A stretch of 64,000 nucleotides of DNA, taken from NCBI GenBank assembly GCA_050084515.1, contig CM114271.1, forward strand, positions 39,494,001 to 39,558,000, written 5' to 3'. Position 1 is the stretch's first letter. The number at the start of each line of letters is the position of its first letter. The notes under the pieces are model-generated. The model searched no databases. It saw only the letters and a program-made list of their open reading frames with translations, and was not told the origin of the DNA. This stretch comes from Blasia pusilla. Its lineage: Eukaryota. The position numbers were made by a program, and so were the translations under genes. Shown piece after piece: positions 16,521 through 62,620 of the stretch.

Positions 16521-17339
16521 ACCAAACCCAATCCAAAGCAGGGCAAAGCTGGGGAAGTCTTGAGTCAAGAGTATACAGAGGCCGTGCGTGAGGGTATTAT
16601 GAATAGTGCTACGAGTTAGAGGTGTAGGATGCCACAATCTGAACCCACTCACATCCTCAAGCACAGGAAACTACGACTCTAAATGTCTTAAACTAATGTA
16701 GTCAAGAAGCAGCCTATGCTGCCCCAATGCACAAGTTATGAGCAACAATAGGATCTCTGATGCAGTACAACAAAAGCTACAACACTAGAGAGCAATTGAC
16801 CTCAATCGATGCCATAATCAAGCTCGACCATAGTCATCATCAAGGAGACATCTGGGTGAGGACATTCGGCCATGACTAGGGCTTTGCAACATGACACAAA
16901 GATTGCTAGCAGCGTGGTTACAAGGCCGCAAGAGATCTTGCAGCGCAAACTAGGGAACTGCAACAAGAGCAAAAGCGCTCACAAAAGCGTGGGTACAAGG
17001 CGGAAAGAGACCTATGAACGTGGCTACTAGGGTTTAGGGAATAGGACTAGGACTCCAAGAGCGAAAGCATGTCACGGAGAGTGAGAGATACAGCTATGAG
17101 TTGCAGCAGGAACGAAAGGCGGCCGAACTAAACAGGCAAGAAAAGACACATTTTGGAACCGAGGCTCTGAGTGTAGCAGCAGAGGAAACGGGGACTCAGA
17201 CATAGTACATAATAGCAAGAAAGAGCGCATCAACGAGAAAGAGCACACAATACCAGGCAAGAGCGTCCTAAGCAGGCAAGAACGCAGTGACAACCGCAAG
17301 CAAGCACAACGCACACATCTCTTGCTCTTGCTGAGTCGA

Positions 17340-37600: not shown

Positions 37601-39239
37601 AAATTGAGGAAGAGCTTTCACATTCATATCCTTATGTGGTACCAAAGAACGGGATTGGACCATGATCACAACAACTTGTCAAGGATTGCTTCTGGAAACT
37701 GTTTCTCGGTCACATACATGATGACTCTCATCAAAGAAGTAGATTATTTCCAACCCGTGAATGGATCAACTTGTACGCGTAGATGTAGATTCAAACCACA
37801 AGAAGCTTCACGGATGTGGAAAGGGAAAGGCAGACCTGCAAACGTCATCCTTTTCCCAATCTTCCGGTTCCACAGGCTTCTGTATTTCCACATCCTCGTG
37901 TAACTCTTGGACTTCTTCTGACATATACTCGAGTTCCTCTTCCAGGAGACTCTGGTGAGTCCAAAGTACAATGTTCAGTGAGAAACCCATCACTTTAAGT
38001 TCCTTGATAGAAGCCTTGCAAGAAATGCATTTGGGACACAATCACGAGATGGTGATTGAACACATTCATTGGACAGTGATCCTGCAAACTAACAATGAGG
38101 ACAGGGAGATGCAGAGCTTCAACAAGTATCAATAAGTTCAACTGTTCCAAAGTGTTGTATTTATTTGGTCTGTGACTTTCATTAACACCCGGAAAAAATC
38201 ACCAGACATCAAAGTCTATGTACTTGAGTGTGCTAATGTCTATGAGCCTGCACTGGGGGCATATAAATATAAGTGTATACAAATTTCTCGAGGCTCGGAA
38301 ATCCAGCCATTCCAAATTCTTCTCTTTTCACATTCCCTGGGTAGAGGAAGTGCCAAAGTCGGACTCCTCAGAAAAACTGTCTATCACTTAGCAAACATGA
38401 CGAGTAGATCAGCTGCAGGCTTCTTACGAGTTTGATCACAATTCAAGAGGCTAAAAGTTGAGACTTACATTGATGGAACCCCGCAGATAAGAACCCACAG
38501 AGGATTTTCGTGGTTCCGAAGCAACATCGAATGAATCTGGGACCTGCATTAATTAAGACCCACATTCACCAGAGTATTAATGTGGCTCTGCAGATCATTC
38601 CAGGCGAAAGGGGTTGGCAAGCTGCTTCATGGAACACAAATAGATAGCCTGTTACTAATCTCACTATATTTTGAAGTCTTTTCAAAAGCCAATGAAATGG
38701 ACCCAGCAACATTAGACAGAACGCAGACAAGGTAGGCTGTCTCCTCCAAACCCTAAACTTTCTCCTCGTCAGGCAAACTGTAAAGCTGACATACCCCTCT
38801 AGTATTCTCAAGCGAGAAATATTTGACGCAGCGAAACGAGAACTCAAGTTTGAGCACATTGTTATTACGACACCGACATATACCCTCAAGTACAGCTCAA
38901 GTACTACTCCTTCAGACAGTAGATGCCATATCACAAAAGACAAAGGTAGTATGGTCATACTACCTTCAGGAATGAGGCATCAGGAGCAAGCGCTCTGAGA
39001 AAAGCATCTGCTTGGCTGTCAGTTCGTGCCCTGATCAAAGCATCCGCCTCACTGACAGTGCGAGTTTTGAAAAATATATCCGTCTGGCTGGGACTTCTCA
39101 AGGAGATCCCTCTGAGTGGAACTGGAGGTGTGCTTTCGTCCCGTGCAGTGGCAGTTGTTGGTGTCGTAGTCATTGCTGTGACGTCAACAACTGCTCCTAC
39201 ACCGGAGCCCACATCGTCTTTCGTTGCTGCTGTGGTCAT
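25468..39239 (-). CDS. CFAP100: CFAP100/CCDC37-family (DUF4200) cilia- and flagella-associated coiled-coil protein, multi-exon gene span; 5' end uncertain
   Basis: Ten phase-compatible exons spell EFIAKKREIFLVQMSLDTRRSEIRKL..AIKKSERLLEEDSLQFDDFLKKND..VQEAVKIAEQETK..IEIKKLN..EQLDDCKKYKDFLIKLTPKEWF..MYFQQPRQLLEIFSDLEVENL..APIFKRLGKP, recognised as FAP100-like. Confidence 0.88.
26704..26874 (-). CDS. CFAP100: CFAP100 exon
   Basis: cag|AKLEENLVCVDHIPDEYVEQQERLREKDRRLKVRQQKL...SLERAR|gt; 171 nt. Confidence 0.88.
27107..27301 (-). CDS. CFAP100: CFAP100 exon
   Basis: tag|AIEVAVKNEDDRQR...LEQLTKKVVETYARVG...LSPIQLLTNIE|gt; 195 nt. Confidence 0.88.
27647..27802 (-). CDS. CFAP100: CFAP100 exon (donor is either GC after 27647 or GT after 27638)
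   Basis: cag|LLEIFSDLEVENLALMQQSQDVEGALEVLKTKF...RTQLQ. Confidence 0.85.
28064..28152 (-). CDS. CFAP100: CFAP100 exon (alternative acceptor at 28131)
   Basis: ...PGDDIDDEVEVEETMYFQQPRQ|gt; phase-1 start is compatible with the upstream exon. Confidence 0.75.
28545..28725 (-). CDS. CFAP100: CFAP100 exon
   Basis: cag|FAEQLDDCKKYKDFLIKLTPKEWFEEQALKK...KFH g|gt. Confidence 0.85.
29089..29148 (-). CDS. CFAP100: CFAP100 exon
   Basis: cag|IIEIKKLNSQIATINSDLNK|gtagg. Confidence 0.88.
29468..29521 (-). CDS. CFAP100: CFAP100 exon
   Basis: cag|VQEAVKIAEQETKRRQDK|gt. Confidence 0.88.
30130..30207 (-). CDS. CFAP100: CFAP100 exon
   Basis: cag|AIKKSERLLEEDSLQFDDFLKKNDAM|gt. Confidence 0.9.
30808..30924 (-). 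CDS. CFAP100: CFAP100 exon (start of DUF4200)
   Basis: cag|ETIQEFIAKKREIFLVQMSLDTRRSEIRKLQDRIYQREE|gt. Confidence 0.9.
31695..31843. repeat. 149-bp flank duplication, left copy (right copy 37514-37662)
   Basis: gatgtaacaggctgag...gggattggacca is present on both sides of the Copia insertion, with one mismatch seen. Confidence 0.95.
32049..32730 (-). repeat. Copia 3' LTR
   Basis: Copy of 36832-37513 (offset 4783); preceded on the minus strand by PPT agagggag (32731-32738). Confidence 0.93.
32738..36902 (-). pseudogene. Copia gag-pol (gag, zinc knuckle, protease, GAG-pre-integrase, integrase, RT, RNase H) with a few breaks
   Basis: CYICAEKGHLARNC; WHCRLGH; LIHSDVCGP...RSDGGGEY...NGVAERLNRTL; YKARLVAKG, QMDVKTAFLNG, LYVDDLL; FSDASWG, STTEAEY, RTKHIDIKHHF. 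Confidence 0.96.
36817..36831 (-). other. Primer binding site complementary to the internal (anticodon-arm) half of tRNAi-Met
   Basis: Minus strand ...tctCA|GGTTATGGGCCCACC is complementary to GGUGGGCCCAUAACC of plant initiator tRNA. Confidence 0.85.
36832..37513 (-). repeat. Copia 5' LTR
   Basis: Minus strand TGTTGAAAT...TTCTCA, directly followed by the PBS. Confidence 0.93.
37514..37662. repeat. 149-bp flank duplication, right copy
   Basis: Matches 31695-31843 and abuts the LTR end exactly. Confidence 0.95.
38964..39239 (-). CDS. Candidate first coding exon of CFAP100
   Basis: ATG at 39239, open frame MTTAATKDD...LRSPSQTDIFFKTR...ASFLK|gta; the phase-0 donor fits the 30924 acceptor. Homology is weak. 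Confidence 0.4.
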
Positions 39240-42900: not shown

Positions 42901-44149
42901 GCTACCACTAGGGCTCTTCAAAGAAGGCTGGTAACTAGTAGTAATAGAAATAGATCTATGAACTTGTAAATTACTATATTAGCCGATATGTTATAGCCAC
43001 TTGTGAATTCAGAACACAATGATAAAGCACAATAGAAAGCAAACCTTGGGCTAATACAAGTAGACATAAGTAACAGATTTCTTTATTAAGCAAATGACAA
43101 CCGGTAGATTCGCCTATATGAAAATATATGTGCACTCCATCTGCAAGTTGCAATATACAACCAACAGAGGAACAAGAGGTTAAATACTCCTGAAGAAGCA
43201 ATGTATTGAGAACAACACTTTGAAAGAAATGTGTACAAACGATGGAATCATGTACATTGTATATGTTTTGAAAATTTCTTTTACACATTCTCAAAACCAA
43301 TAAAATTGTTAAGTATATCAGGTAGAGAAGACTTTTTCTCTACCAAGGCTAGAAAACTATTATGAAAATGTGGCCATAGTGATGGAATATTGCCACTGGT
43401 ATTGTTCCACATACGAACACTTGGCAAAAACAACGCTGCAAACAATCATTAATCAGTACTAATCCGGGAATATTAGAAATACTTGAAGCAGAGTATATAA
43501 ACACCAAACGATGAAACATAGATGATAACACTTACATGTCGCCCTGCAGGTGTTAGATGCATTTCCTTTTCTTGGGTCTTGGAACTGATCCGCCTTAATA
43601 CCGCTTGTCAACCTTGCAAAGTGGGCTATAACTTGCTGGCGTGTGAGCTCGGCCTCATTGAAATCAATTCCTTTAAGAGCCATCACTTCTTTCTGAATTC
43701 CTGTAGAAAATAATTTGGTAGGTAAGCATACATATTTTAAGGGAAAAGAAGCCTAAATAACTGAGAATTAGTCCAAAATTGACAAAGCCTTGGGATCATA
43801 TTTACCTATTGCTGGGGGTTGCTTCCTCAACTCGCAAAATGATGTAACCCATGCCTTACGCTGATCTATCATGCGACTCAGTTTCTCGGCTTGTAATACC
43901 ATCATACCAGTACGAAGAATTGAGGCCTAAACTATTTGCGTATCTGAGTTGGGCATCGGTTGGTGGAACAATCTGAATGTTTGGTTCGTCGGCGAGTGTA
44001 GGGAGGAGTCCAAAATCATCTTTGCAAAGTCCAAATAGGACTTAGGTACCTGGACATATGGTTGTTAGTTTGGCATACCACAATTTAAAGTAGAAATGGT
44101 TGGGCGAAAAGTTTTTGACAAACCTGAGTAGTGCGATTGGCTTTTAATA

Positions 44150-45990
44150 TCAATGTTGGACGTAAGCAAAACTTTACATCCAATAGCTAAATACTAGAGT
44201 TTATGAAAATGATGATCAGATATCCACTCATTGAATTGGGGTTCAGGGGGAGCATCAGTTGAAACATGGAATGGAAAGATCTTAACTACACCAAATAACC
44301 GGCGTAACGCAACAATATTGAATAGTTTCACAATTGCACGGTGTGTACAAATCACATGGGCAGAATCATCTATGTAATCCATAGTTGTGTCTTCATTGAC
44401 AAAGGAGTTTCCAAGGCAGTTGTCTATTTGTTGTTGTATAGGACACACACACTTCTTATGTAAGATAAAACCCCAAAAATTTAGGATCATTGGAGTATTT
44501 AATAGCGGTTTGCAATGTAAATTTATTGTTGTTGGCAAAGAATGGTGAAGAAGATAAGTGGCAGAAAGAACAGATTGGCTGAACATTATGACGACAAACA
44601 TGAGGAAGTTGACATAAATCTCCTAGCAAAATGACAAGTTTAGTTGAGAAAGGATCTAATGTTGTTGAGGGACACACTTGGTGTAACCTCATAGTAACTA
44701 TCTGTAGGAGACGCGGCGTAAGCTTGGAGCATTAATCAATCACTATCACTTTTGCCTCTTTCAGACGCATGTAGTGATTTGAACCTATCTGCATTGTAGC
44801 TAGGTCTTCCTTTATAGGTATACCAAACGTAGAGTGCACGGTCATAGCATTTCTATGCAGGCGCACGATAGCAATTCCAGTAGCTGCAGTGAAAAGTGTG
44901 GGAATAGACTGAGCTGACCAAAATGTTTCCATGAATTTAATAAAAAAAAATTTACCACAACCAGGTGGCCTAGTGATCAACACAAGGCCCGAAGAAAGAG
45001 TCCAGATTTTGGGAAACAGTTCTACTTGCTCTGTGTTCAATATATCTAGGCGAACACTTGTTGACTGGTTGTCTAATCCAGAAGCGTTTGGTAGGGTGTT
45101 AGGTTGCTCTACAACATTAATAAATGAATCTACAGACAGGTCAAAGCAAATGTGTGGTGCAAGCACATCTAATGTTTTAGAGACGATTTTGCTAGTGTGG
45201 ACTTGGATCCACAAGTTTACAACATTACGTTCTTGGATTTCATCAACGATACAGGAATAAATTTGAATATACCCCTATGAATACATTCATGCAAATATGT
45301 CCATGTAGGTGAGCTTACTGACAATATCTCAGATTCAGATCGGAAGGAGATATTCTTCAAAAGCACTTTGTAAAAAAATTCGTCCCACTAATGCAACACA
45401 TGATATTCACTAAACCAAACAAGCATGTCTATTGTGTACACTGAGTTACCCACCGCATCAACACCAACAAGACTAGTAGAAGAGCATGTGTTTAGCCTAG
45501 AAACTTCATATTGGCTCCAATATTGAGTAAATGTTAAGTGAGATAAGCATTGAGGATGACTGCAGTATAGCGCAATAGGATGTATGCAAACAATTGATGC
45601 ATTTTTGTACAATATAGTGCGCAAATGTGGTGGACTAAAATCCATATATTCAACTGATTGTGATCTAGTAATAATTGGGATCTTGAGAGCTGTTTGTTAG
45701 TGCTGCTTCTGTAGAAGAAATAAAACTATTAAGAACTAGCCCAGATATTGGATGTAATCTTGTCATGTCCAAACTCTCAAGGCCAAGATACTTGGCACTT
45801 CTTGTATTAATGTTGAGTGCGCCATGTGGCTCACATTTTAAGGCATATTTCAGTAGATAAAACGACCATTGTACGTTTGTGACATGCTATAAATTCATGT
45901 GGGCACCCTTCCACAACAAGATAGTTGGGTGATATGGTATGACATTCCTATGCAGTTCACTCCGTCTGTATATGAATTTGACGACATCTT
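44150..45990 (-). pseudogene. Helitron RepHel remnant (Rep C-terminus + PIF1 helicase)
   Basis: RNVIPYHPTILLWKGAHMNL...YLLKYALK (~45835-45960); LNTEQ, LITRPPGCGKF (Walker A), AATGIA, TVHSTFGIP, VIVID (Walker B), LLGDLCQLP, VICTHRAIVKLFN. Confidence 0.85.
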
Positions 45991-46119
45991 CAGAAAGGGT
46001 GGCACATGTAGCCATGCTCCTCGACTATCAAGTGGTAGAAAGTTGTTGATAATGTACATAATACGAGAGGAGAAGACAAACATGGAAATTGTAAGGGAGT
46101 TGGGGGAAGAAGTGCTGCA

Positions 46120-46436
46120 TGTCATGACCATTCGGATTATGTCGTAGAGTATAGTGCTGGTAGAGGCCATTCCTTATGTAGGACCGTAGTGGCTTGGTAG
46201 AGATGCGGTTCCATACATAGGGTTGGGGGTTACTCACTTGGGCTTGCCCTCAAAGAACAGTCAGTTCTTTGAGTTGAGCCTGTTGCGTTGGGAGTTAGCC
46301 TTGGTAGTGAGTAGAGCTCTTGGCTATGGTGTTTCCCGCAAGCTTCGACCTAGATTCTCCCATCGTGGAGTGGGTTTGGCTCGATTGTATGTGATTATAA
46401 ACGTGTTTTATGACAGTAGGTCTTTCACGGATTTCA
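46120..46436 (+). repeat. Gypsy terminal repeat segment A1
   Basis: Matches 55045-55416 apart from a ~55-bp indel. Confidence 0.93.
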
Positions 46437-47816
46437 CTCAAAGAACTGGAGTAGATCGATGGTAGCTTCGATTATAGATGAGTAGGATCTGGTTAGGGCT
46501 GATTGTGTACTCAGCCGTGGATGTTCGCGGCTTGTTGCCTATGTTGGAGGTGTGAATCAGGTGCGTGGTTGGTTGGGAAAGAAGCGCCTTGCTGAGAGCT
46601 TTCCAACGCGCTGTAGATCGCCGGATTTCGTCAAGGGAGTTGGAAGTTATCAAGCATTGAAGATTCTGGTTCGTGTTCGACAGTTTTCTGATGTGGAGAG
46701 CTTGGAGTGCGGAAGCTCTGTTGAAGTTCATCCAGATCGGCTCAAGGTCTGGCTATGGTGGACAGCGGATCGGAGGGGCTGGTTGGTTGGTGACTCGTTC
46801 ATTGTTGGAGACGCCTATTCCGTTGGGGGCGCCCTGGTTGGACCTCTCTCCATAGCGAAGCATGGCGAACGGGGCATGTCTCGGCGTTTCGAGGCTTTGA
46901 GGCAACTCGTGGTAGCTCGGGGCGAGTGGGCGTGAGAGGCGGAGTAAGGAGCAAGCAAGCAAGCTTGCTTGCTTAGGCGTGAGGCAATTTTTGCAGGATT
47001 TGGGATTTGAGTTTTGCATAACTGGTCACCCATCTTTGGGCTATTCTGCCCGGAGGACGCTTAACTGCCGAGTTCTTAACTATGCCAGTGTACAGACTGT
47101 TGTAGCTCATTTGGTGTTGTTCGTAGATGTGTTAGGCGCTTTATGCATCTCAGGTTTTTGGTTGATGTACCTCTAGTGCATAGTACGGTGTAGCCTCTCC
47201 ATGCAGGTGGTATTTTTGGTCTTTTTGGCGTTCGACTAGCATGTCATCGACCATGGCGCGGAGTAGCTATTGCGTTAGAATTGTGTGGTGGGTTTTGTGG
47301 ATTCAGAGGGCACCACGTTTGGTGGATTGTGTTACCTTGATTTCCATTTGCGATTGGAGGGTTGTCGTTGGATTTCCTGTGTTTGGATCCCCTCCATCGT
47401 GCTTCTTGCTTGCGCGCCCATTGTTAGGGTTGACGCTGATTTCCAGAGTAGTGTTACTCTTGTGTGCTACCGGTAGTGAGGCTGGAGGGATGACGAGTAG
47501 ATTGTGGGAGACTTCTTGTGGTGATGACAAGTTAGGTTGCCTACACCCATAGCTAGTAGAGCTAGAATCGTATAGCGACATCGACGCGTCACTTGGTAAT
47601 TTGGTGGTGGTGCGGCATCGGCGTTGGTCATCACGGAGGCTGTCGGGTGGTACGGTTGGGGACCGTGGTGCGGACAGTGGTGGTTTCACACGGAGTGGAT
47701 TTAGGTATCGGCTACCTTTTCCACTTCCGACGGTTGATGAAGAGGAGGACGAGGGTGTTCCAAACACCGAGTCTTCTACGTTGTTATCGAGTGTTGCAGC
47801 TCCATTGATTTGGGAC

Positions 47817-48913
47817 ATGGACGGTGGATATGGGGCCATGAAGGGCCCACGACGATACTCGGGTGCAGTGGGTACCATTGAGTTGGAGGACTTCATGCAA
47901 AAGTTTGATACATGGTGTGATATGCAGATGTTGCAGAACGCCACGTTGTTTACACCCTTCTTGGCTTGGAAGGGGTTGTTTCAGCACTTGGAAGGACCAC
48001 CCATCGATGATTACCATGAGTTTAGGAAGGACCATGTTGCTGAGATTGAGGCATGGAGACAATATTGGTCTCCAGGCTATGTGTCTATCACCCATGGTGG
48101 TATTGGTAGTAGTGCTCCTACTATGCCAGCCAGCCCGATGTTGAGTGGTACGAGTACGAGCCGGAGTGGGGGTACCAGTGGAGGTACTAGTGGGGGTACT
48201 AACTAGTGGAGGTACTAGTGCCCCACCATCGTTTAGCCCGGTTGCAGAGTTCTTCAAGAGGTTGAAGAAGAACTATCAAGGAGTGAAGACGGAGAAGTTG
48301 AGGAATCTTCAGGACTTTGAGCGAAAAGACTGGTGAGAGTCTTCGTGAGGCATACACGCAGCGTATGCGACGCTTGATTTCGATTACCAGGGTGTGACCG
48401 AGGATCATGCGATCGATTTTTGGTATGGGATCTTGGACAGAGATTTGCGCCGTAGGGTGCGTGATGCTACTCTTATGAGTGATGATTCACCCACATTGAC
48501 CCATGTGTTTGCTCTATCTGAGAAGATTGAGCTTAACATGGTGAAGGAGAGAGTTGTGACATCCGCATTCAGTAGGGATACAACTACTACTTCTCGTGTT
48601 CAGCCGCCCACCTCACAATCTCGTAGTAGTGGTGGTGGTAGTAGTAGTGGGAGTCGTGGGGGGTACACGCGACCTCAGTCAAGTCCTAGAGGGACATTTG
48701 TGCAGAGACCATTGCCTTCATTTGCTGCCCATAATAAGGGGACAGTCATGTTGGACATGTGGAGGTGATCATGTTAGGAAGTTTTGTCCCCAAGAGGATG
48801 GGAGACGGACTTTGGAGGATGGGCCTCAGTGGGCCCCAACTCAGTGTGATCATTGCGGGAGACTAGGTCATCCTCGAGAGCGTTGCTTTGATCTTCATCC
48901 AGAGTTGAGATAA
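47817..48913 (+). pseudogene. Gypsy gag with two zinc knuckles (frameshifted)
   Basis: GPRRYSGAVGTIELEDFMQKFDTWC...; CWTCGGDHVRKFC and CDHCGRLGHPRERC. Confidence 0.8.
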
Positions 48914-49699
48914 GGCCGTGGCCGTGGTGGAGTAGCTCCGAGAGGCCGAGGTGGTAGAGGTGGACCAGTGGTTGGAGAGCCTACGGTGGCTACCCCTACC
49001 ACTACGACAGAGTCAGCTATGGCTGCCAGGATTGAGCGATTGGGAGAGAGTTGGCTACTATGGGGTATCCAAAGATAGATCAGTTCGGGAGCGGGGCTTC
49101 CACCTCTTATGGAGGGATGATCTCTCTTATATGACGAAAAGACAAAGACTGAGGTTGAGGCATCGGTGTGAATTCTGAGAGGAGCCACTCGAGCGTCGAG
49201 CCACGTGGTGCTCTTGGGAGTTGGACCCACAGAGGGGTGAGGCTAGGAGGCGGGCTAGGCTTCCCAAGTCATTCTTGTTGTCCGAGGTGCTTAGGACTCC
49301 ATCCATGGTTCCTCACGCGAGCCTATTGAGCCAGCAGTGGGGATCGAGGCATCTACATCGCGTGTAGTAGACACGGATGCAACATCCAATGCAAGATGCG
49401 GATGGCAACCGGTGTTGGGATCCCCATTGTTTTCGCCACACGGAGCGATGGCTTTAGGAGTTGACTTAGCTCTGTATTTGATTAGCGACCACGTTGTGTG
49501 AACGTGGGGTGTTATTCTTGCTACACGTGTTGAGGTGGATGAGGGTGTTGCGGTGGAGCGACCCTCTATGTCGGGAGTAGCATTGAGTACCGGTGCTACT
49601 GGCAGCAAAGAAAGGCGAAGATGGATGCATTACCAACCCGGCCACCATTGATCGTGAGAGGCTTACACTGGTGTATGTATGTTGGACAACCGGAGTGGG

Positions 49700-50100
49700 A
49701 TCTTCCGATTGGTGAGTCCTACAGACAGGTGTATAGACCAGATAGAGTCTTGTTAGACTCGGTGCCCAACCTTTAATTTGATGTTGGGAAAGGCGGCATG
49801 TATTGGTTTGGATATTCGGAGGTCGAGCTTGAGCCTTGCCCATTCCAGATTCAAACATCACTTGGAGGAGCCAACGATAGGTCTCAATTCATGACACGGG
49901 AGAAGTTTTCATGCTGTTGAGACCAGATCATGCGACCGATAGCTCCCGTTGGGAGTATCTACGGTAGTCACATCATCGAGTCGTATGATGTACTAGTTGG
50001 AGGAGCGATGATTGTACCCGATGGGTTTTCAGATGGATTCTCGGATGAGGCGTCTTATAGACCAGGTTGGCAGTCCGGGATGGACGTATGAGCCAAGTTC
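49700..50100 (+). pseudogene. Aspartic protease remnant
   Basis: agagtcttgttagactc-ggtgcccaacct reads RVLLDS(G)AQP with a 1-nt deletion at ~49760. Confidence 0.65.
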
Positions 50101-50469
50101 TGTGAGATTTATTTCGGGGCTCGACCAGAGGGTCTTCCCAACAAAGTGTTAGCATCTGTGGTCTGGTTTTAGTGGAGTAGTCACTTGGCCAGGAGACTTT
50201 TTGGAGGGTAATGTTTACGCTATGGATTCTCCTGCCCATGAGGAGGTAGAGGAGGTCCCTATTTTTGCAGCAAATGGCATCCTCATCGTTGGATGTGCCA
50301 CTTTGGAGTTCAGCGGTGCACTACGGCAGAGGCGTCGCCTAGTGCAGAGGCTTGGTGTGAGGTCGTTATACCTCACGAGGAAGAGGACGCCCACGGCGAA
50401 CTCCTACTACTGGCCCAGATTGGGTTATCCCCTTTGGATACTACACCCATTGTATGGCGATATCCGGAG

Positions 50470-51410
50470 GGCATTTGTGTGTTAGATCTCTTTGGTGGGA
50501 TTAGCAATGGTTTGGCGGCGATGTGCAGGCGGTATTCTGTCATGGAGATACGTGTATGTGGAGCAAGATGAGACGGCCGAGAGTCTCATCCCGACATATT
50601 GGTCGATTGATGCGGAGATATCTGAGTTGTTGCCGCCATCGCTATTTGTGGGTACTGGCGTGCTTTACCATCACACATTGCATTGTTAGAAGCGCAGGAC
50701 CTTGAGAGGGTTGGTCTGTGGATTTGGTGATTTTTGGATGGCCATGTCGTGAGTCATACAAGTCTTTGGTCGTGGTGAGGGATTACATGACCCTAGGTCT
50801 CGATTGTTTTGGGAGATGTTACGGGTGTTACGACATCTTTAGGTTCATCAGGCACGTGCTCTAGCTTACATTCTGGAGAATGTTCCATTGTTGGGTGACA
50901 CTCGGACCCGGATAATGGCGAGTGTTCATGAGGTGCGGTCTTGGATTGGACCAGCGGTGTTGTTGGATGCAGCACGAGTTGGCTCGCGTGCACATCGTCC
51001 ACGCTTGTGGTGGACAAACTTGTTGCCTAGGGAGGTTCTACGTCGAGCATATGATGCAGTGCAGCGGGATCCTCGCCTTACAATGGATAGTATCTTGGAT
51101 ACTGGGCGACTTTCTCAAGTGGTGAGGGTTATTGATCGGTCACCCATGGCAGTGGTGAACCATGTGGGCCAGCCTAGGATGGCACTACCCACATTTGTGA
51201 GTTTTCAGCGTCACATGCCTCGAGGAAGGTGGTCCGGGGCTTGTATGGGGATTCTCATGTGCGGGGATTGGTGGAGCCTAACGCTGATGAGAGAGAGCGT
51301 GCGATGGGATTTACTACTGGTGTGACAGCGGTTGCTTCTATTTCTAAGGCTTCATGACTTCATGTGTTGGGTCAAGCCATGGACCTGAATTTTTTGACTT
51401 GGATTTTGAG
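50470..51410 (+). pseudogene. DNMT3-like C5 cytosine DNA methyltransferase domain within Gypsy pol (frameshifted in this sequence)
   Basis: Motifs in canonical order: I VLDLFGGISNG (50479), II YVYVEQD (~50550), IV VDLVIFGWPC (50718-50747), DPRSRLFWEMLRVL, VI YILENVP (~50876), VIII DAARVGSRAHRPRLWWTNL, IX EPNADERERAMGF (~51273), X LGQAMD (~51367). Confidence 0.9.
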
Positions 51411-51779
51411 TCTTGGTATGGCCGAGCAGCGTCGACTTCGGACTATGTCTGTGGGTCTTCCACCCCTTGTAATGAGCTCGATGGCTACTGGGGACGGTAG
51501 AGGCATCGGGAAGCGAGGAGAGTAGTATTTTGCATCCTTGGAGTAAATGGGATGTAATGGTTGGGCATGTGGAGTTGGTTGCTCATCTTTGGTGGAGGAG
51601 TTATTTGCTCGGATGATGGTGTAGCTAAGGGTGTATCATCTTGTGAGGGGGTTGCGAGCGACCAATGGCATAAATCCTCTTCCTCTAGTATGCTAGTGGA
51701 GGAGACTTGGGAGCCATTACTTGGGCCCAAGCTTACGGGAGGTGAGAAACGACGCTGACACGGTTCCTACGTGCTTATA

Positions 51780-53130
51780 GGAGTTGTTTTGCCTTTAGCA
51801 TGAAGGAGTTGGGTTCTCTGGTTGGACCCGGTATAATGGATTGATTTGGCTAGTGATACGCCAATCTTCCGTCGTCCCTACCAATATAGTGATATGGAGA
51901 GGGACCTGATTCAGAGTAGGACGTTGGACCTTTGGAGGCTGGATTAGTGGAGTTGTCGCATGGAGAGTATGCATCGCCCTTTGTCATGCTCGCTAAAAAG
52001 GATATGCATGGCAACTACACGGATAGGCGGATGTGTGGAGATTACCGCCCTATCAATCGGCAAACCAAGGCCGATAGGTATGCCATGTCTACACCGAGGA
52101 GATCTTTGATGTGGTGGGACAGCAAAGATTTTCAGATACTTTGGATCTTGGCAGGATACCATCAATTGCCGATTCAGAGAGTGACAAGGCCAAGACAAAG
52201 ATTTTGGGGTGTCAACTCTCATGGCAAGGATTGTTTGTACCGGTGGAAATTCTTACCCTTTGGGTTGAAGAATGCACCTGCCGAGTTTCAAAGAGTGATG
52301 GGCGGGATCCTAGCGAGGGTTGGATTTTGTTCGGTGTTACATTGATGATATCTTGGTGTTGAGAACACGGTGGAGGAGCATCGATACATTTGCAGATGGT
52401 GTTTGAGTGGTTGAAAGCTCATGGTCTACGTTTGCATCCGGAAAGTGTAAGTTCTTCCATGAGGATGTTGAGTACTTGGGTCATGTGATCTATCCAGGTG
52501 GTTTGGGAGTTCAAAGCAAGCAAAGGTGGAGGCTATTGCACTTATTCCGTCCGGTAGATGTGAGTAGAGTTCGAGCATTCATAGGATTGGCGAACTACTA
52601 TCGGAGGTATGTGAAGGATTTAGTGCTATGGCAAAGCCTTTGAACCAATTGCTGAAATCAGATCAAGAGTGGCATCGGGAGATGATCAGAGAGAGCTTTG
52701 GGGAGCTTAAGGCCAGTTGGTGGCGGCGCCTATCTTGAGGAGACCTATCGAGGGCGCCCATTTCGATTACACTCGATTGGAGTAGGTTGGGACTTGGAGC
52801 GGTGTTGACACAACATGATGATGAGCACATGGAGTTTGTGGTGGCCTATGCAAGTCGTTCGAATAATGCAACGGAGTCGCGCTATAGTTCATATGAGGGA
52901 GAGTGCTTGGCAAGAGTATGGGTTGTGGCACACTTTAGGTGTTACTTGTTTGGCACACGATTTACCCTTGTTATTTCGATCACCACCCGCTCAAGTGGTT
53001 GATGGAGTCGGACAAGCTTACGGGGAAGCTTGCACGGTGGGCTCTTATCTTACAAGAGTATGACTTCCGGGTGGTACATAGACCTGGAGTTGCCAACCTT
53101 GATCTTCGATGGGTTGAGTAGGAACCCATG
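51780..53130 (+). pseudogene. Gypsy reverse transcriptase and RNase H (frameshifted)
   Basis: RMCGDYRPIN, GYHQL, LPFGLKNAPAEFQRVM, YIDDILV (~52338), YLGHVI, RAFIGLANYYRRY; GLGAVLTQ, VAYASRS, YSSYEGECLA, DHHPLKWL, KLARWALILQEYDF. Confidence 0.95.
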
Positions 53131-53499
53131 TACTAGCCAAGAGGATATAAGCGGGGCTAGATGGCATGGCGAGGTTGATGAGGAGATGGTGCCAGGTTGG
53201 CATGCATCCGCCTTTTATGTTGGTTAGGGTGGACTCTAGTATGGAGGACCACATGATATCTTACTCTAGTCGAGGGTAGATGGCGGCCTTGGATCCTTAG
53301 GTTGGAGATGGTTATACGGATCAGCGTGATATTCATGATGATGCGTTGGTGTTGGAGTTCCTACGGACCAGTAGGGTGCCAGGCATAGTGAGTGCCAAGG
53401 AGCGAGACCGTGTTCTTCAACGTGCTAAGAGGTATCGATTGGAGGGAACACATATTCTCCGCATGTGGGAGGATGGTAGAGTACGAGTAGTGCCACATT

Positions 53500-54300
53500 T
53501 GGCTCAGAGAGAGCGCATTGTGCGACATGCCCATGAGGAGTTGGAACATTTTGGGGTAAAGCGTACGTATAGCTTACTCCTTGGCCAGTATTGGTGGCGT
53601 GGCATGCATACTCAGTCAGCAGATTGGTGTCACGTTGTATGGTTTGTGACCGGGTGAGGGCATCATTTAATGCCCCTACACCACAATTACACCCCTTGCC
53701 TATTATAGGGTTGGGTTACCGTTGGAGTGTGGACTTTGCGGGACCGTTACCATTGACTGTACGACATCATCGATATGTGTTGGTGATGGTGGAGCACTTC
53801 TCCAAGTGGATTGAGTTGGTGGCATTACCGGACAAGGCAAGTGAGGGAACGGCGTATGCGTTTCTGGATAGAGTGCTTAGTCATTTTGGTGCACCGGTGA
53901 AGTCTTGACCGACCAGGGTACAAAGTTTCAGGGTGAGTTTCGTCTTGTGTGATAAGGCATTGATTGATCATCGGACCACGTCTTGAGATCATCCCAGGCG
54001 GATGGTTTGGGTGGCGTGTGGTTCGAGGCGGTGAAGAGGGCATTGCGCAAGTATGGCCTCTGAAGGGACATCTTGGAGACTAGGATATTCGATTTGCCAT
54101 GGTTAGCCATAGGGTATAGGTTCGATCGCCAAGCATCCTTGGCTTCCTTCTCACCTTATTTTTCATTATACGGCGAGATCCGGACTTGCCAAAGCAATTT
54201 GTCGGGAGTCTAGTGAGGTGGTGGACCTTGATGACCCCAGAGATGTGGATGAGGGTGTGTTCTCTCGTAGGCGGAGCTCTTTCGGAGAGTTATGCCAATG
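53500..54300 (+). pseudogene. Gypsy integrase (HHCC + catalytic core)
   Basis: HAHEELEHFGVKRT...CMVC; RWSVDFAGPLP, YVLVMVEHFSKW, LTDQG. Confidence 0.92.
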
Positions 54301-54627
54301 GCCTTTGAGAATCTTGCCATTGCTCAACACAGGGATACGTTGCGGTATGCAACCATTCGGGTGGAGGTTATCGACCATCGATTCAGAGGTTCCATGTGGG
54401 GACTATGTCTATTTATTTGCGCAGATTGCCCCGACAATGTTGGATGTGACGGCAGCCGCACTATTTTACGAAAGTGCGTGAGGTGTTAGCTTCGGAGTTC
54501 TCATGTTGGAGGGTCGTGATGGAGTTATTTGGAAGGACCATGTGCGTAATTGTGCGCCATGTCATCTTCCAAATGTGGATGGTGTCTTGTTGATCCAAGC
54601 TTAGCCATGATACGTGCTAGCTTGAGG

Positions 54628-54769
54628 TGCATGTTGTGTGGGTCTGCGGGTAACGCGGCCCGTATGTTGGTGTGTGATCGGTGTTCTAGGGGTTGGCACA
54701 TGATGTGTTTGACTCCACGTTTGGATGTTGTTCCTCTTTGGAAGGTGGGTTTGTCCTCGATGTACTTAG
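54628..54769 (+). pseudogene. PHD finger at the pol C-terminus
   Basis: CMLC...MLVCDRCSRGWHMMCLTPRLDVVP../WVCPRCT* gives C4HC3 spacing with one frameshift near 54740. Confidence 0.9.
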
Positions 54770-54938
54770 GAGAAGTAGATGACTTGATCTTTGCATGATA
54801 TGGATTACAGATGTGCGACTAATGATGGGGCAACCTAGCACCCGGCCTTCGATTCGGGCACCCAAGAAGGTGTATAGCATGTAGTAGATGTATAGGCTAC
54901 CGGGAGTTAGAGGACCTAACCGCTTGATTAGGGGGCGA

Positions 54939-55522
54939 GTTGTGGTACACTTGCGTTTGTGGATACTCGTCTATGTTATGTATGTATGTGAGTATGGTAT
55001 GTCGATGTATGTTGTATGACGATGGGGATTCGTGACGGACAATTTGTCATGACCATACGGATTATGTCGAGAGTATAGTCTTTGGTAGAGGCCATTCCTT
55101 ATGTAGGACCGTAGTGGCTTGGTAGAGATGCGGTTCCATACATAGGGTTGGGGGTTACTCACTTGGGGGTGACTTTCCCAGTAGGGCTACCAACCGCTCT
55201 TAGGTTGGAGGATATAAGGTGGCTTGCCCTCAAAGAACAGTCAGTTCTTTGAGTTGAGCCTGTTGCGTTGGGAGTTAGCCTTGGTAGTGAGTAGAGCTCT
55301 TGGCTATGGTGTTTCCCGCAAGCTTCGACCTAGATTTTCCCATCGTGGAGTGGGTTTGGCTCGATTGTATGTGATTGTAAACGTGTTTTATGACAGTAGG
55401 TCTTTCACGGATTTCAGTTGTGGTACACTTGCGTTTGTGGATACTCTCGTCTGTGTTATGTATGTATGTGAGTATGGTATGTCAGCGATGTATATTGTAT
55501 GACGATGGGGATTCGCACGACA
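54939..55522 (+). repeat. Gypsy 3' terminal repeats B1 (54939-55041), A2 (55045-55416), B2 (55417-55522)
   Basis: gttgtggtacacttgcgtttgtggatact...gacgatggggattcg..gaca occurs both before and after the second A copy. Confidence 0.92.
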
Positions 55523-56600
55523 TGCACCGTTGGAAGATTGACCGAATCTAAACTTCTATTGAGATGATTCCGTGTGTCTCCAAGATGTACAGAACCTTAG
55601 AGAAGATATAGCAATGGAATCTTGGCTTCGACATTCAAATGAAAATCAGAGCATTGCAAATTATGTGCAATTATACCTAGAGGAAGTGTTCTTTTACCAG
55701 GCTTACAAAAGCAAGGAGTGTCAATTCATATTAGGATTCTGGTTTGAATGGATATGCTTGATGTTAGTTGAGCATGGAAATGGGAACATAATTTGCATGG
55801 ACTCGACATTTGGGACAAACAAGAACAAGGTAAATTCTGCAGGACCTCTCTATGGATCATAGGGGGTGGTCAGGGAGGGAATGTGTTACAATATTGAAGT
55901 CGCAATGTTGTTGATAATTATATCTGGAAATTTGGTACTGTCAATGTCTAATGTTGCAATTGTATTGTGCGTTAAGTTTCCGTTGTGCACCGTCATGGTA
56001 TATGATAAGTTCCACAAAGGGATCCCTGTAGCTAGGGTTTTGAAAAACTCATGCAAAGAGGTGGACATCGCCAATTAAGTGGTTAGAAGAAGGTTGCAAT
56101 TAGTGGGCATAAACAGTCATGCAATGAATGGAACCTGGAGTTGGATGTTCCATCAGTGCCAAGTTGCATAATGACAGACTACTCATTGGCAGAAATAAAT
56201 GCACTCATGTGAGTAAGCTCTGCAGTTTCCACTTGTGAGTATGATGATACATGATGCCTTACTAGACTTTGTAATTGTGTGTGGTTTGCAAAATTTGACA
56301 CAATGTGCATTCTGCCGTGAGCAAGCAAGTATTTAACAAAATCTCGATCATCCTCTACTTGTGGCATGTCCGCCACGATTGGCACAAGCATTTAAGAACA
56401 AAAATCTTGGATTACGCATAACGATGTGAGATTAGCACAAGGTTGGGAAAGATCATGTACACAAAGCCAACTTCGAATGAAGTACTTTCTCATGGCCGGG
56501 ATGTGGGCATGGCTCCATTGGCTTCAACATTAAAATCCTTGGAGGCTCTCTATGTTGACTTCTCTTCGAGACAAACTTTCTGCACTCTTCCCTCCAATAT
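55523..56600 (+). pseudogene. Mutator (MULE) transposase remnant interrupted by the Gypsy insertion
   Basis: IICMDSTFGTNK, FPLCTVMVYDKFHKGIPVA and LWHVRHDWHKHL are MULE DDE-domain motifs; the sequence probably continues left of the Gypsy at ~46040-46119. Confidence 0.8.
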
Positions 56601-58319: not shown

Positions 58320-61300
58320 CAATGAACGGGGAGATCCGGGGTTGTGAGTAATGCGAAGGGTCCGAGGGGCCCTTCGGTGGGGTGGAGACCCCACCGCATG
58401 CAAACCAGGCCTCATTCGTGGCCTTTCACTTCCGACTCCCATGACCCAAGTGACTCCAAAGTGTTGCAGCGTTGCTGTTCCATGCCCAAGCTCTGGTTCT
58501 CTATCATTCTCATTTTCGTTTCCTGTGCGACTTCGGAGTCTCGACGCCTCATTTTCGATTCCTGTGCGACTTGAGTCTCTACGCCTCATTTCTTGACTAT
58601 ACTATTCAGTTTGGACTCAGGGTGACGAGCTCTGCTGAAGCTTTTTTTCTCATTTTCTCGGATTGAGGAGTCTCTCGAGCTTGCCTCATGCTCGAAGTGT
58701 TGAGCATGCTTACTCTCGTGGAGCCCAGACAATGGAGTCCATAGACTCGGGCATCCAGCTTGTCTTTGTTGTCTACATTTTGCTTTAGTCTAGGGTCGTG
58801 CCACTTTTGTCTTTCATTGTATTGCCGATGATTTTCTCAAGTAGAGGGACTTCTGTCTTGCAGGGATGCTCATCTTTGTGCTCTTTGTTTCATTTTTCTT
58901 GCATTGTGGCTACTACTCTCTTGCGGCTTTCTCCTCGAGTCTCGTTTGTAGCTTTTGGCTTGCTGTCACTACGGTCCCTCTGTCCCTATCCCACGCGGGA
59001 TTCTGTTGCTTTCATCTTTAGATTCTCGCGTTTGGGGACTTCGGTTTTGCAGGGAGGCTCATTTTCCTGCTCTTCGCTTTGTGTATCTTGCATTGTGTGG
59101 CTACTATCGTCCGGCAACTATCTTGCATTGTGCATATTTTTACTCGAGTCTCTTTTGCAGCTTCTGTCTTTTGTTGTAATTGCGTCCCTCTCCCATACGG
59201 TCACCGCGTTTGTCACTGTCCGTGTATCAGGTCCGTATCAGGTTGGTTTGATTCACTTCATTTTTCTCATCGTCTCTATCTTGCAGATGTGCGATCACAC
59301 AATGGCATCTCTATCTTGCCGCCAACTGCTCATGCGTCTCTATCTGGCTGCCGAGTGCTCATGATCGTAACATTGCTGCCACATTCTCAAGTAGAACTTG
59401 CGATGGCAATTACTCAGCTTTGAGTGTGGCACTTCAGCCGCACCTTTCCCTTGAACCCCTACGGCATCCGATCTTGCAGCTTTTGCTGCTCTGGTCTATG
59501 CCTCACAAGAGCCTGGGTTCCAAGCTTCTGAAATTTCCATGTGTTAGTCCGAAGCTCCTGATGAAATTTCCTTGTGTTAGTCCGAAGCTTCTGATTTACT
59601 TGTATTAAACTCAATTCCCCTCTGGTAGTCTTGTGAGTCGCTTTTCTAAGCTAGTAGAAGGAGATTAGAACTCCCTGTATATAAGAACTTCATTTTTGTA
59701 GTTCTCATGGCCAAACGCCAGAGAACAATGAATGAACTGTTATTCAAGGAGGTTCCCAAGGAACAACGTGACATCATAGCTCTCTCTGGATCATCTGATG
59801 AGAGGGATGACCAAAGCATATTAGGCAGCAATGGATCGATTCCTGAGAAGAATCGTGTAGCTTGGAAAGACGTGTGGTATACTATGTACGATTGGATAAG
59901 TTTTGATCCAGAAAGTGGGAGGATTCATTGTAATGTTTGTAGGAAAGGTAAAGGCAAGAGTGTATTTGCTAGGGATGGTGCTATCAATTGTAAGGTATCG
60001 GCATTCACAGATCATGCAAAGTCAAACGAACACATAAAACTTTCTTGGGCCGCCCATGGAGGTAAGAAGTCTATGGCTAAGGCCATAGCTACATCCAACC
60101 GAACATGTGAGGTTGCTTTGCTGACTTTATTCAGGTCTGCATACTTTCTTGCAAAGGAGGCCTTGCCTTTTTCAAAATTCAAGTCTCTCTGTAAGTTGTT
60201 GCTTGCTGTGAATGCACCTATCACTAGAGACTTGTATCAGCATGAGAAAAGTTATAGTGAGATGTGTTTCTTCATAATCCAAGTTTTGATGAAGAAGACT
60301 CTAGCTAGAGTTCAGGCCTCTCCTTTCTTTGGGATCATGATCGACTAATCTACAGATATATCTGTGACAGGTCATTTAGTGGTATTTGCAACTTTCATTG
60401 AAGAGGGTCAAGCCGAGTGTTGTTTTCTAGGCTTGCTTCATTGTGAATCCAAATGCTCAAATGCTATCACTAACATTCTGTTGGAGTTCATCAAAGATGG
60501 AGGACTAGAACATTAAAAAATGGTAGCATTTGGATCCGATGGTGCCTCTACAATGGTTGGGAGGCAAACCGGGGTTGCTTCACAATTGAAGCAAAAGGTG
60601 AGCCCATATTTTCTTTCGGTGCATTGTGTAGCCCATAGGACGAACCTTGCAGCTTTGACAGCTGCAAGAGCACCTCATTGCAAGGGAATTTTGATAGAAA
60701 TCGATTCTATTCTGAACGCTGTAGCAGGATTTTTCAAAAGGTCTTCCAAGAGGAAAGCCAACTTAGCATCACTTCAAGAAAAGTTGAATGACTCTCAACG
60801 AGTCATGAAGAGGTATTATAAGATCAGATGGTTGAGCCGGTGGCAAGCTGTATGTACTTTGTGTGATTCATTGGAGTCTGTATTGACATATTTTAGGGAT
60901 ATTCCTTTGTCTGAAGATGATGGGAATGCCTCAAATTTATACAACAAGCTAAGATCATTCCAAATGATCTATCAGTTATATTTTCTTGCTGATATTCTTT
61001 CTAGCCTTGCTAACTTGAGTAAAATCTTTCAGTACAAGTTTGTCGATGTTAGCACTATTGGTAGCATTGTTAGCTCTGAGATAGCTTCTATTACCATGAA
61101 TTATGTCCTAGAAAGTCAAGATTTGAATGCATCTACTTTTTCGGAAGAAACAGGTTATCATATCCCACCTGATTTTGGACCCCGTGATGGATATCTAAGA
61201 CGTTTACAGTCTGAAATTAGGGGTAGTAAGTTTCATAGCATTGATATGTTGAGAGACCGCACCGGGAGAGATCTAGAAGCTGCTCTTTTACTTCAAAAGA

Positions 61301-62620
61301 CATATGCTGAAAGTGTATGTTCAGCTTTGCAAGATCGGTTCAGGGATAACAATCTGATTGGTGCAATGAAAATTTTGAACCCTTTACACATGCCCTCCCG
61401 ACAAGTTGGGTTAAGCAGTTGGGGGTGTAAGGACTTGGAAGACTTGTGTGGACATTTTGGATGTGAGTTACCATTGAGGGGAAACTTACAACCATTTGTT
61501 ATAAACCCGGCTGCTGTCAAACAAGAATTTCAATCCTTCAAGTTGATGGCTACTACAGAGTGGAAAGATCGCAATTTCAGGGATCTATGGGCAATGGTGA
61601 GTTGGAGCCCAACTTTACAATGTAAGTTTGCTAATTTGCTTGTCTTGGCAAATGTTGCAAGGGTGCAATGTGTTAGCACTGCCATATGTGAGAGGGCTTT
61701 CTCAATTCAGAATATGTTAAAGACCAAGTCACGTAATAGATTATCTACTAAGCATCTAGATGCTGTTTTGAGGATTGCTCTAGAGGGACCTGTAGATGAC
61801 TTTGATGACATGTTGGCCGACTCTGTAATTTTGTGGAAAACTTTTGCACATTTCAGATACCTGTATGCTAATCCTGATAGGTACATGAATTCTGAAGCTG
61901 ACGTGCAGTTTGATGCCCCATCCCTAGACATGTCCACTTGAAGTGAGTTTGTTTTGTAGGATGTAGAGCCCCTCTAGAATACTTTGGAGCTTTGGATCTC
62001 CCACTATTGTAGAGGGGCAAGATCCTTGGTTCCCAAGTGGTTGGGGAGCATGGCCAGGTTCAACTCCTGCCAAGGATGCAATAGAGTCCACTAGGGGTCC
62101 AAGGAACTGTCTTTCTTCCTTTCTTGCATTAAGCAAAGAAGAGATAGGGAGGAGGGATCTTAGGGACAAGTCATGCTGCTATGATGCTTTCTTGCAACAC
62201 CATGGGCCACTACAGCATGGGCCACTACATAGATGTGAAGGACAAAAATCCTTCCTTTGGCGTTTGGCCATGAGAACTACAAAATTTGTTCTCTTAACTC
62301 CTTCCACACCATAGTGTTTGTGCACAACGAAAAACAAAGGAAGCGGAGAAAAAATCCATGCCCTATCCCCTATCAGAATGAGGCTTGTAAATTTACGGGC
62401 ACAAGTTAAAGCTGCAGGAAATTTTATGCCTCCCGAAGAATGAAGGGGAAATGGCTAACAGAAATTGAAAACAACCAGAAAAATAATCGTCCCACATTTT
62501 GAATTTCGGATCTGAACCGAGTGCTAAAAATAACCCCAATTTTGTTTGGCGTGACGAATTTTTCAAGACCCTAAAATACTTCTACTAAGTCGAATGTTTA
62601 AAAAAACTCCCCGGACCTTG
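58320..62620 (+). mobile_element. hAT DNA transposon (copy 3), complete, with 8-bp TSD
   Basis: TSD CACCCGAA at 58312-58319 and 62621-62628; ends caatgaacggggag... and ...ctccccggaccttg. Confidence 0.96.
59707..61941 (+). pseudogene. hAT (ZNF862-like) transposase, single frame with two premature stops
   Basis: 744-codon frame with TAA at 60346 and 60514; CNVC..H..H finger, GIMID*STD, GSDGAS, HCVAHRTNL, IRWLSR, VSTAICERAFS. Confidence 0.95.

Follow-up and report, generated by a model that had tools for sequence, protein, structure and literature searches.

A long terminal repeat (LTR) retrotransposon with split direct repeats was found in a 64,000-nucleotide stretch of Blasia pusilla DNA (GenBank assembly GCA_050084515.1, contig CM114271.1, positions 39,494,001 to 39,558,000 of the forward strand; this whole stretch is referred to as the window, and its first letter is position 1). 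The element occupies positions 46120-55522 of the window and is a decayed Gypsy-DNMT3 type LTR retrotransposon, belonging to a lineage in streptophytes. On the + strand it comprises, in order, A1, an internal region, B1, ATT, A2 and B2. The two complete terminal LTRs of a canonical Ty3/Gypsy element were not found: the 5' end is without B, and an extra B lies beyond the 3' A. The A-internal-B-A-B arrangement is very probably a genuine inserted structure in this Gypsy-DNMT3 member. On balance, the best explanation of the locus is that the split repeats of the decayed element are real and probably typical of its lineage, and that they were produced by an inferred route through a two-LTR circle.

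Repeats and insertion junctions

Repeat boundaries were set by BLAST, alignment and direct reading. The features are given by window position, strand and basis.

46116..46119, + strand: putative target-site duplication, left copy, TGCA (direct reading)
46120..46436, + strand: A1, with TGTCATG at its start and GATTTCA at its end (BLAST match to A2, direct reading)
54939..55041, + strand: B1, with GTTGTGG at its start and GGACA at its end (BLAST match to B2, direct reading)
55042..55044, + strand: ATT spacer within the B1/A2 junction, GACA-ATT-TGTC (direct reading)
55045..55416, + strand: A2, full-length A (alignment with A1, direct reading)
55417..55522, + strand: B2 (alignment with B1, direct reading)
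55523..55526, + strand: putative target-site duplication, right copy, TGCA (direct reading)

A1 and A2 were matched by BLAST at an E value of 1.6e-116. They differ by five substitutions, two 1-nt indels and one indel of about 55 nt (about 55168-55222), which is present in A2 only and includes the TATA box. B1 and B2 are 93% identical over 100 columns (E 9e-38; BLAST bounds 54938/9-55041 and 55416/7-55522). Their differences comprise two substitutions, indels of 2 nt and 3 nt, and the final 7-9 nt; GACA terminates both. Since both pairs carry substitutions and indels, the members of each pair are distinct genomic sequences, as opposed to a single sequence entered twice.

All four junctions were read directly. 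At the left end, flanking TGCA is followed by the TGTCATG of A1. B1 meets A2 as GGACA-ATT-TGTCATG, and A2 meets B2 as GATTTCA/GTTGTGG. At the right end, the CACGACA of B2 is followed by flanking TGCA. The inserted ends are therefore TGTC...GACA with TGCA on either side, and TG...CA ends with a short target-site duplication are also those of canonical Ty3/Gypsy elements. For a single site, a 4-nt match between flanks is expected by chance with a probability of 1/256. The A-start and B-end form the better inverted repeat (TGTCaTG/TGTCgTG); the B-start and A-end have TG/CA alone in common.

Local alignment detected no remnant of B on either side of A1, and none of A beyond B2 or ahead of B1 (scores 16-24, against shuffle means of 17-20, shuffle maxima of 26-30 and a positive control of 162). 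No further copies of A, B or the internal region were found within the window. An earlier sequence-only reading of this stretch had proposed the A-internal-B-A-B layout, which was borne out by BLAST, alignment and direct reading and by the lack of hidden remnants. The TGTC..GACA ends and target-site duplication that it described could be read directly, at this one site. So could its series of polypurine tract, B1, GACA-ATT-TGTC junction, A2, TTTCA/GTTGTGG junction and B2.

Predicted replication signals and definition of the LTR

The following signals were located in the element.

46249..46274, + strand: 10-bp hairpin with arms at 46249-46258 and 46264-46273; the 3' arm, 46262-46274, is a candidate self-primer
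46436..46448, + strand: candidate primer-binding site abutting A1 (13-nt perfect complement of 46262-46274)
54930..54938, + strand: polypurine tract AGGGGGCGA, abutting B1 (direct reading)

The primer-site complement starts at the last base of A1, and a complement of at least 11 nt was obtained in 7 of 5000 A1 shuffles. In A2, TATAAG (55213-55218) is located 29 nt upstream of the copy of the self-primer (55242-55254). The A1 of the window copy is without the TATA-containing segment of about 55 nt, which is held by A2 and by a contig from a public sequencing run (X15, described below); as the contig also holds it, its absence from A1 is a deletion. No tRNA-type primer-binding site was recognised, and ARAGORN returned 0 tRNA genes in the window for comparison. 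The sequence-only reading had described a 5' end consisting of A without a primer-binding site. The absence of B and of a tRNA site was upheld, but a candidate self-primer site does abut A1. In Tf1, the initial 11 nt of the RNA serve as the primer for self-priming. Self-priming is also predicted, in the available text of PMC6317226, for Tcn1 elements of moss and club-moss.

Because the polypurine tract abuts B1, plus-strand DNA should start at B. Together, the polypurine tract, primer site and TATA geometry would define a replication-level LTR of B + spacer + A, with outer ends GT-TG...CA. At the A2/B2 junction the last base before the primer site is joined to the first base after the polypurine tract, with nothing gained or lost, and the junction looks like the blunt two-LTR circle junction made when full-length linear DNA is ligated. 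The inserted ends sit between B and A, inside the LTR, and not at the outer ends of B+A. The layout had been suggested earlier to be what a two-LTR circle (LTR = B+A) would give if opened at the internal B/A site. The fit is exact, and an LTR of B+A is indicated independently by the polypurine tract, candidate primer site and TATA box. The opposite definition, an LTR of A+B, was rejected, as no polypurine tract precedes A2, nothing resembling a primer site follows B, and neither a B/internal nor an internal/A junction is present in the window copy.

Coding content and decay

The internal region has the gene order gag, C5 DNA methyltransferase, reverse transcriptase (RT), RNase H, DDE integrase and PHD finger.

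47817..49300, + strand: frame-broken region resembling gag, which is colinear with Marchantia P0013 and Sphagnum P0045 in their N-terminal parts (tblastn)
50242..51325, + strand: C5 cytosine DNA methyltransferase (DNMT3-like), in two frames (homologues, alignment motifs)
51920..52650, + strand: reverse transcriptase (RVT_1), frame-broken (Pfam, colinear tblastn)
52739..53215, + strand: RNase H (RT_RNaseH, E 8.6e-18; RT_RNaseH_2) (Pfam, colinear tblastn)
53502..53633, + strand: integrase H2C2 zinc domain (Integrase_H2C2, E 5.6e-9) (Pfam)
53717..53896, + strand: integrase DDE core rve, in another frame than H2C2 (Pfam)
54628..54726, + strand: PHD finger at the C-terminal end of pol (Pfam, E 3.6e-8)

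The methyltransferase motif I region lies in the open reading frame (ORF) 50242-50571, and ORF 50843-51325 contains the ENV and RxRxWW motifs. The usual methyltransferase motifs were seen in an alignment of relatives; in the window copy ENV and RxRxWW are kept and the PCQ catalytic motif is lost. Pfam gave no match to the window's own DNMT and gag pieces, and the DNMT was identified because its homologues carry PF00145. The best solved structures for the DNMT piece were those of DNMT3A, a weak match (E about 1). No tyrosine recombinase (Phage_integrase) was found in six frames of the element, and no Pfam family was found on its - strand.

Compared with intact relatives by tblastn, the reading frame shifts many times, and the window copy is therefore considered decayed. 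Of the frame breaks, at least two are confined to the window copy when it is set against public-run contigs. The earlier description of the locus as an integrase-encoding element agrees with a Gypsy pol containing H2C2 and DDE integrase domains; the DNA methyltransferase domain had been overlooked. No protein match was obtained in the stretch of about 1.4 kb (46449-47816) that separates the candidate primer site from the point where gag-like matches begin.

Relatives of the element

ORF 50843-51325 gave 50 homologues at E values of 1e-3 or less, the better ones 62-83% identical. Many of these carry PF00145, and some are single proteins with PF00145, RT and RNase H. The named relatives are from Marchantia polymorpha, Sphagnum species, Calypogeia fissa and Riccia sorocarpa. 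A DNMT profile search added a protein of Klebsormidium nitens (P0079, E 1.5e-50) and a Cymbomonas protein. P0079 has the domain order DNMT, RT, RNase H, H2C2, rve, which is the order in the window element, and it aligns with the window pieces in colinear fashion (DNMT, 38%, E 2e-24; RT, 37%, E 1e-20; integrase, 55%, E 3e-33). A PHD finger was not found in P0079, which is a partial protein. Scans of 15 relatives detected no tyrosine recombinase domain in any of them.

A second architecture was observed in environmental relatives P0071, P0075, P0078 and P0086, in which the DNMT lies between RNase H and integrase and a PHD finger is C-terminal. A viral contig collection searched with the RT piece and with the DNMT alignment gave no confirmed relative, and a genome contig collection searched with the DNMT alignment gave no relative. 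Five metagenome loci that matched the hairpin pattern were discarded after BLAST, being chance matches of a palindromic pattern.

The traits that place the element in Gypsy-DNMT3 are the RT-RNase H-integrase order, the C5 methyltransferase in the polyprotein, the A-coding-B-A-B repeats and the relatedness to K. nitens.

Published precedent and comparison with known systems

Gypsy elements of K. nitens with Dnmt3 in Pol ('KnitGypsy-Dnmt3') are described by de Mendoza et al. 2018 (PMC5890265, cited here from the part available). Their repeats are stated in the legend of Fig. 4c to be DIRS-like, A-coding-B-A-B, and the layout is spelled out as A-coding region-B-A-B for Symbiodinium DIRS elements in the legend of Fig. 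1e. The available parts of the paper and of its peer-review file offer no explanation of the KnitGypsy-Dnmt3 layout, and the available part of the paper gives no junction sequences or primer sites for it. In the literature searched, 'KnitGypsy' occurred in de Mendoza et al. 2018 only, 'Gypsy-DNMT3' occurred beyond that paper in one 2026 preprint merely citing it, and no description of bryophyte members was found. An integrase-bearing Gypsy element with split repeats is thus a kind already in print, with the layout drawn for a relative and the route unexplained. The sequence-only reading had treated split repeats as foreign to DDE-integrase Gypsy elements; given the publication of KnitGypsy-Dnmt3 as A-coding-B-A-B, this view is out of date. 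Its alternative suggestion of a family with split repeats is favoured here, from the colinear K. nitens relative with a published layout.

Three points are new with respect to the published account: an LTR of B+A as set by predicted replication signals, inserted ends placed at a CA-NN-TG palindrome inside that putative LTR, and an A2/B2 junction that looks like a blunt two-LTR circle junction.

The window element and KnitGypsy-Dnmt3, as far as the available text of PMC5890265 describes it, share a Gypsy pol with a Dnmt3-type methyltransferase in the polyprotein and A-coding-B-A-B repeats. They differ in sequence, with 37-55% identity via P0079, whereas among named relatives, bryophyte proteins come closest to the window copy (62-80%). 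The window copy also has a PHD finger after the integrase, where none was found in the partial P0079, and it is frame-broken and without the PCQ motif. PAT/Ngaro elements (DIRS order) have the same direct-repeat order of A1, internal region and B1-A2-B2. The window element differs in that it lacks a tyrosine recombinase: it encodes a DDE integrase, possesses a polypurine tract and is bounded by TG...CA ends and a flank duplication of 4 nt.

Tf1/sushi elements and Tcn1 (PMC6317226, available text) resemble the window element in their RT-RNase H-integrase order, in having no tRNA primer site and in the predicted complementarity of an RNA 5' stretch to a site just after U5. They have two complete LTRs, however, and the comparison of the window element with them is one of features. 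In two-LTR circles of prototype foamy virus (PFV) and human immunodeficiency virus type 1 (HIV-1), as described in the available parts of PMC1180852 and PMC1905944, a CA-NN-TG palindrome in circular DNA is likewise a DDE integrase substrate that yields processed linear ends. The retroviral palindrome is the ligation junction, and cutting it restores a normal genome; in the window element the palindrome lies inside the LTR, and the putative ligation junction A/B stays in the inserted copy. At the circle junctions of IS3/IS30, inverted ends that abut 2-3 bp apart are an active DDE transposase substrate. As these are bacterial DNA transposons without reverse transcription, the likeness is an analogy only.

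Family copies in public sequencing runs

Part of the stretch was present in 16 public runs from 9 studies, of which 4 (X1, X3, X7 and X15) were compared as contigs. For this comparison 15 of the 29 joints were available, together with 12 of the 28 rows giving the letters between joints, and 24 of the 2990 loose ends. Summed contig depth in X3, which does not equal copy number, was in the thousands over the element and 3.2 and 5.6 in the outer flank bins. These depths point to a high-copy family.

The B-end was joined to the A-start in contigs of all four runs, which shows that the B/A junction is a family-wide feature. The spacer at this junction was GC in X3 (depth 455), X7 (56) and X15 (26); in X1 it was AC (6.7), with two longer variants in addition. 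The GC spacer, present in most other family copies, gives a perfect 10-bp CA-NN-TG palindrome, GACAGCTGTC; the window copy has ATT at this position. Ratios of contig depth over A, B and the internal region were not used further, since 2:2:1 is expected under split repeats and ordinary LTRs alike.

The base composition of the + strand of the element is 31% G, 19% C, 21% A and 29% T, and AA reaches 0.6 of its expected frequency; outside the element, the window has 21% G, 21% C and 29% A. A-to-G hypermutation of the window copy was rejected, as differences from X1 run both ways (A>G at 87 places, G>A at 64). Because differences from other copies are two-way, the G-rich, A-poor skew is a family trait.

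Proposed route of integration

The layout is likely to be typical of the lineage and not a one-off, mainly because the K. nitens layout is published in a colinear relative, and also from the inverted repeats. As to how it arises, we tentatively propose, at somewhat less than an even chance, that a two-LTR circle is cut by integrase at the internal palindrome. Junction anatomy and biochemical precedent are the evidence for this route.

Under the proposal, the TATA box in A would direct transcription from a start site about 30 nt downstream. By folding back onto the site that directly follows A, the first 12 nt or so of the RNA would serve as the primer for reverse transcription, in the manner of Tf1. 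Plus-strand synthesis would be primed from the polypurine tract ahead of B, giving a DNA product with B+A LTRs. Blunt ligation of both ends would produce a two-LTR circle and create the A/B junction. The DDE integrase would then open this circle at the CA-NN-TG palindrome between B and A of one LTR. Finally, the resulting A-internal-B-A-B molecule would be inserted by its TGTC...GACA ends, with a 4-bp duplication made at the target. The TGCA flank repeat is consistent with a staggered cut by a DDE integrase. A precedent for the enzymology of the proposed opening comes, by analogy, from PFV and HIV-1, whose integrases cut two-LTR circles at the palindrome formed where the LTRs meet (PMC1180852, PMC1905944, in the parts available). 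With A1 carrying its own TATA box and A2 acting as the 3' repeat, the layout would still be able to give a full-length RNA.

Several points weigh against this explanation. Only one flanked copy was seen, and the target-site duplication stands on 4 nt at that single site. Transcription start, self-priming and circle alike are inferred. Cutting at either palindrome of the circle should also yield A-B-A-internal-B, A-internal-B and solo A-B insertions; A-internal-B-A-B alone would yield an RNA with a 3' repeat, which could explain why it is the full-copy form. A family-wide B/A junction would be given equally by ordinary B+A LTRs. The X15 contig that runs through A extends 10 nt back into B, unbroken at the A-start, and leans towards ordinary LTRs there, unless the assembler dropped low-depth flank branches. 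The contigs give neither the share of A-ends that run into B instead of internal sequence, nor evidence on whether A starts and B closes the other copies. P0079 is a K. nitens relative by sequence, and presumably but not necessarily one of the copies drawn in PMC5890265.

Alternative explanations

The family might be an ordinary one with B+A LTRs at both ends, and the window locus a one-off, in which a two-LTR circle was accidentally opened at its internal palindrome. The polypurine tract, primer site and TATA geometry do imply B+A LTRs, whose ends are also TG...CA, and the abundance of the B/A junction in all four runs, the unbroken X15 contig and the single flanked copy are all as such a family would give. 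The same accident would, however, have to be invoked for the colinear relative (37-55% identity) from a family published as A-coding-B-A-B, and two independent accidents are unlikely. The inverted repeat is also better at the A-start and B-end than at the B-start and A-end. We regard a one-off accident as unlikely. A more distant alternative is that the layout formed after insertion, through ectopic recombination, deletion or duplication, or that it is an assembly artefact. A family of very high copy, as the X3 depth suggests, is prone to misassembly and recombination, and another LTR element in the window (31695-37662) is also oddly laid out. Against this, both breakpoints fall at the same B/A point to the base, the ends are inverted repeats of the TG...CA type between identical TGCA flanks, no remnants of A or B are left, A1/A2 and B1/B2 differ by substitutions and indels, and a relative is published with the same layout. 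Rearrangement or artefact is accordingly thought very improbable. Nested insertion and unequal crossing-over were rejected, since neither yields flank/A and B/flank at the same LTR point with a target-site duplication.

Mobility of the DIRS/Ngaro kind, in which recombination of a circle at the B/A site is carried out by a trans-acting tyrosine recombinase, would account for a repeat layout of PAT/Ngaro type, as found in Symbiodinium DIRS elements (PMC5890265, part available). Against it stand the lack of a tyrosine recombinase on either strand of the element or in the 15 relatives scanned, and the retention of H2C2 and DDE integrase domains in the lineage. The TG...CA ends with a 4-nt flank duplication also speak against it; to our knowledge, tyrosine-recombinase elements do not make target-site duplications of this sort. 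The chance that a recombinase in trans was responsible is judged to be slight.

Other features of the window

The sequence around the insertion site was inspected for domain continuity: no domain was found in the right flank, and leftward only a PIF1 helicase was present. This PIF1-like helicase (43000-45300, - strand), probably from a Helitron, is about 0.8 kb left of the element. Remnants of hAT-type transposases, with zf-C17orf113, DUF4371 and hAT dimerisation domains, are located at 15315-16670 (- strand) and 59650-61941 (+ strand).

A Copia-type element on the - strand lies within 31695-37662, with gag, integrase and RVT_2 at 32738-36929. It has an outer repeat (P) of 149 nt (31695-31843 and 37514-37662, 99%) and an inner repeat (X) of 885 nt (31846-32730 and 36629-37513, 100%), the latter including the start of the gag ORF. 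Its order on the + strand is P, X, internal, X, P, which is neither a plain LTR pair nor A...B-A-B. Template switching, partial tandem duplication or faulty assembly could each account for this layout.

CpG was at 0.59 of expectation outside the Gypsy-DNMT3 element and at 0.75 inside it. The depletion fits a genome that has CG methylation.

Implications for the Gypsy-DNMT3 lineage

In textbooks, two-LTR circles are dead ends, and split direct repeats are the mark of tyrosine-recombinase retroelements. The window element is a Gypsy element that bears an integrase and yet has split repeats. The 2018 remark on the layout of one algal family has apparently had no follow-up in the literature searched. 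The putative primer sites and promoter of the window copy, like its junctions, are legible at single-base resolution and are consistent with a single, simple circle route. Protein matches place the lineage in liverworts and mosses, groups with good assemblies.

More tentatively still than the route proposed for this copy, the whole green-lineage Gypsy-DNMT3 clade may always insert a circularly permuted genome through a two-LTR circle opened by integrase. If so, companion A-B-A-internal-B, A-internal-B and solo A-B units would be expected, each with a target-site duplication. The two-LTR circle would then be an obligatory intermediate, and an integrase element would have converged on the repeat design of DIRS/Ngaro.

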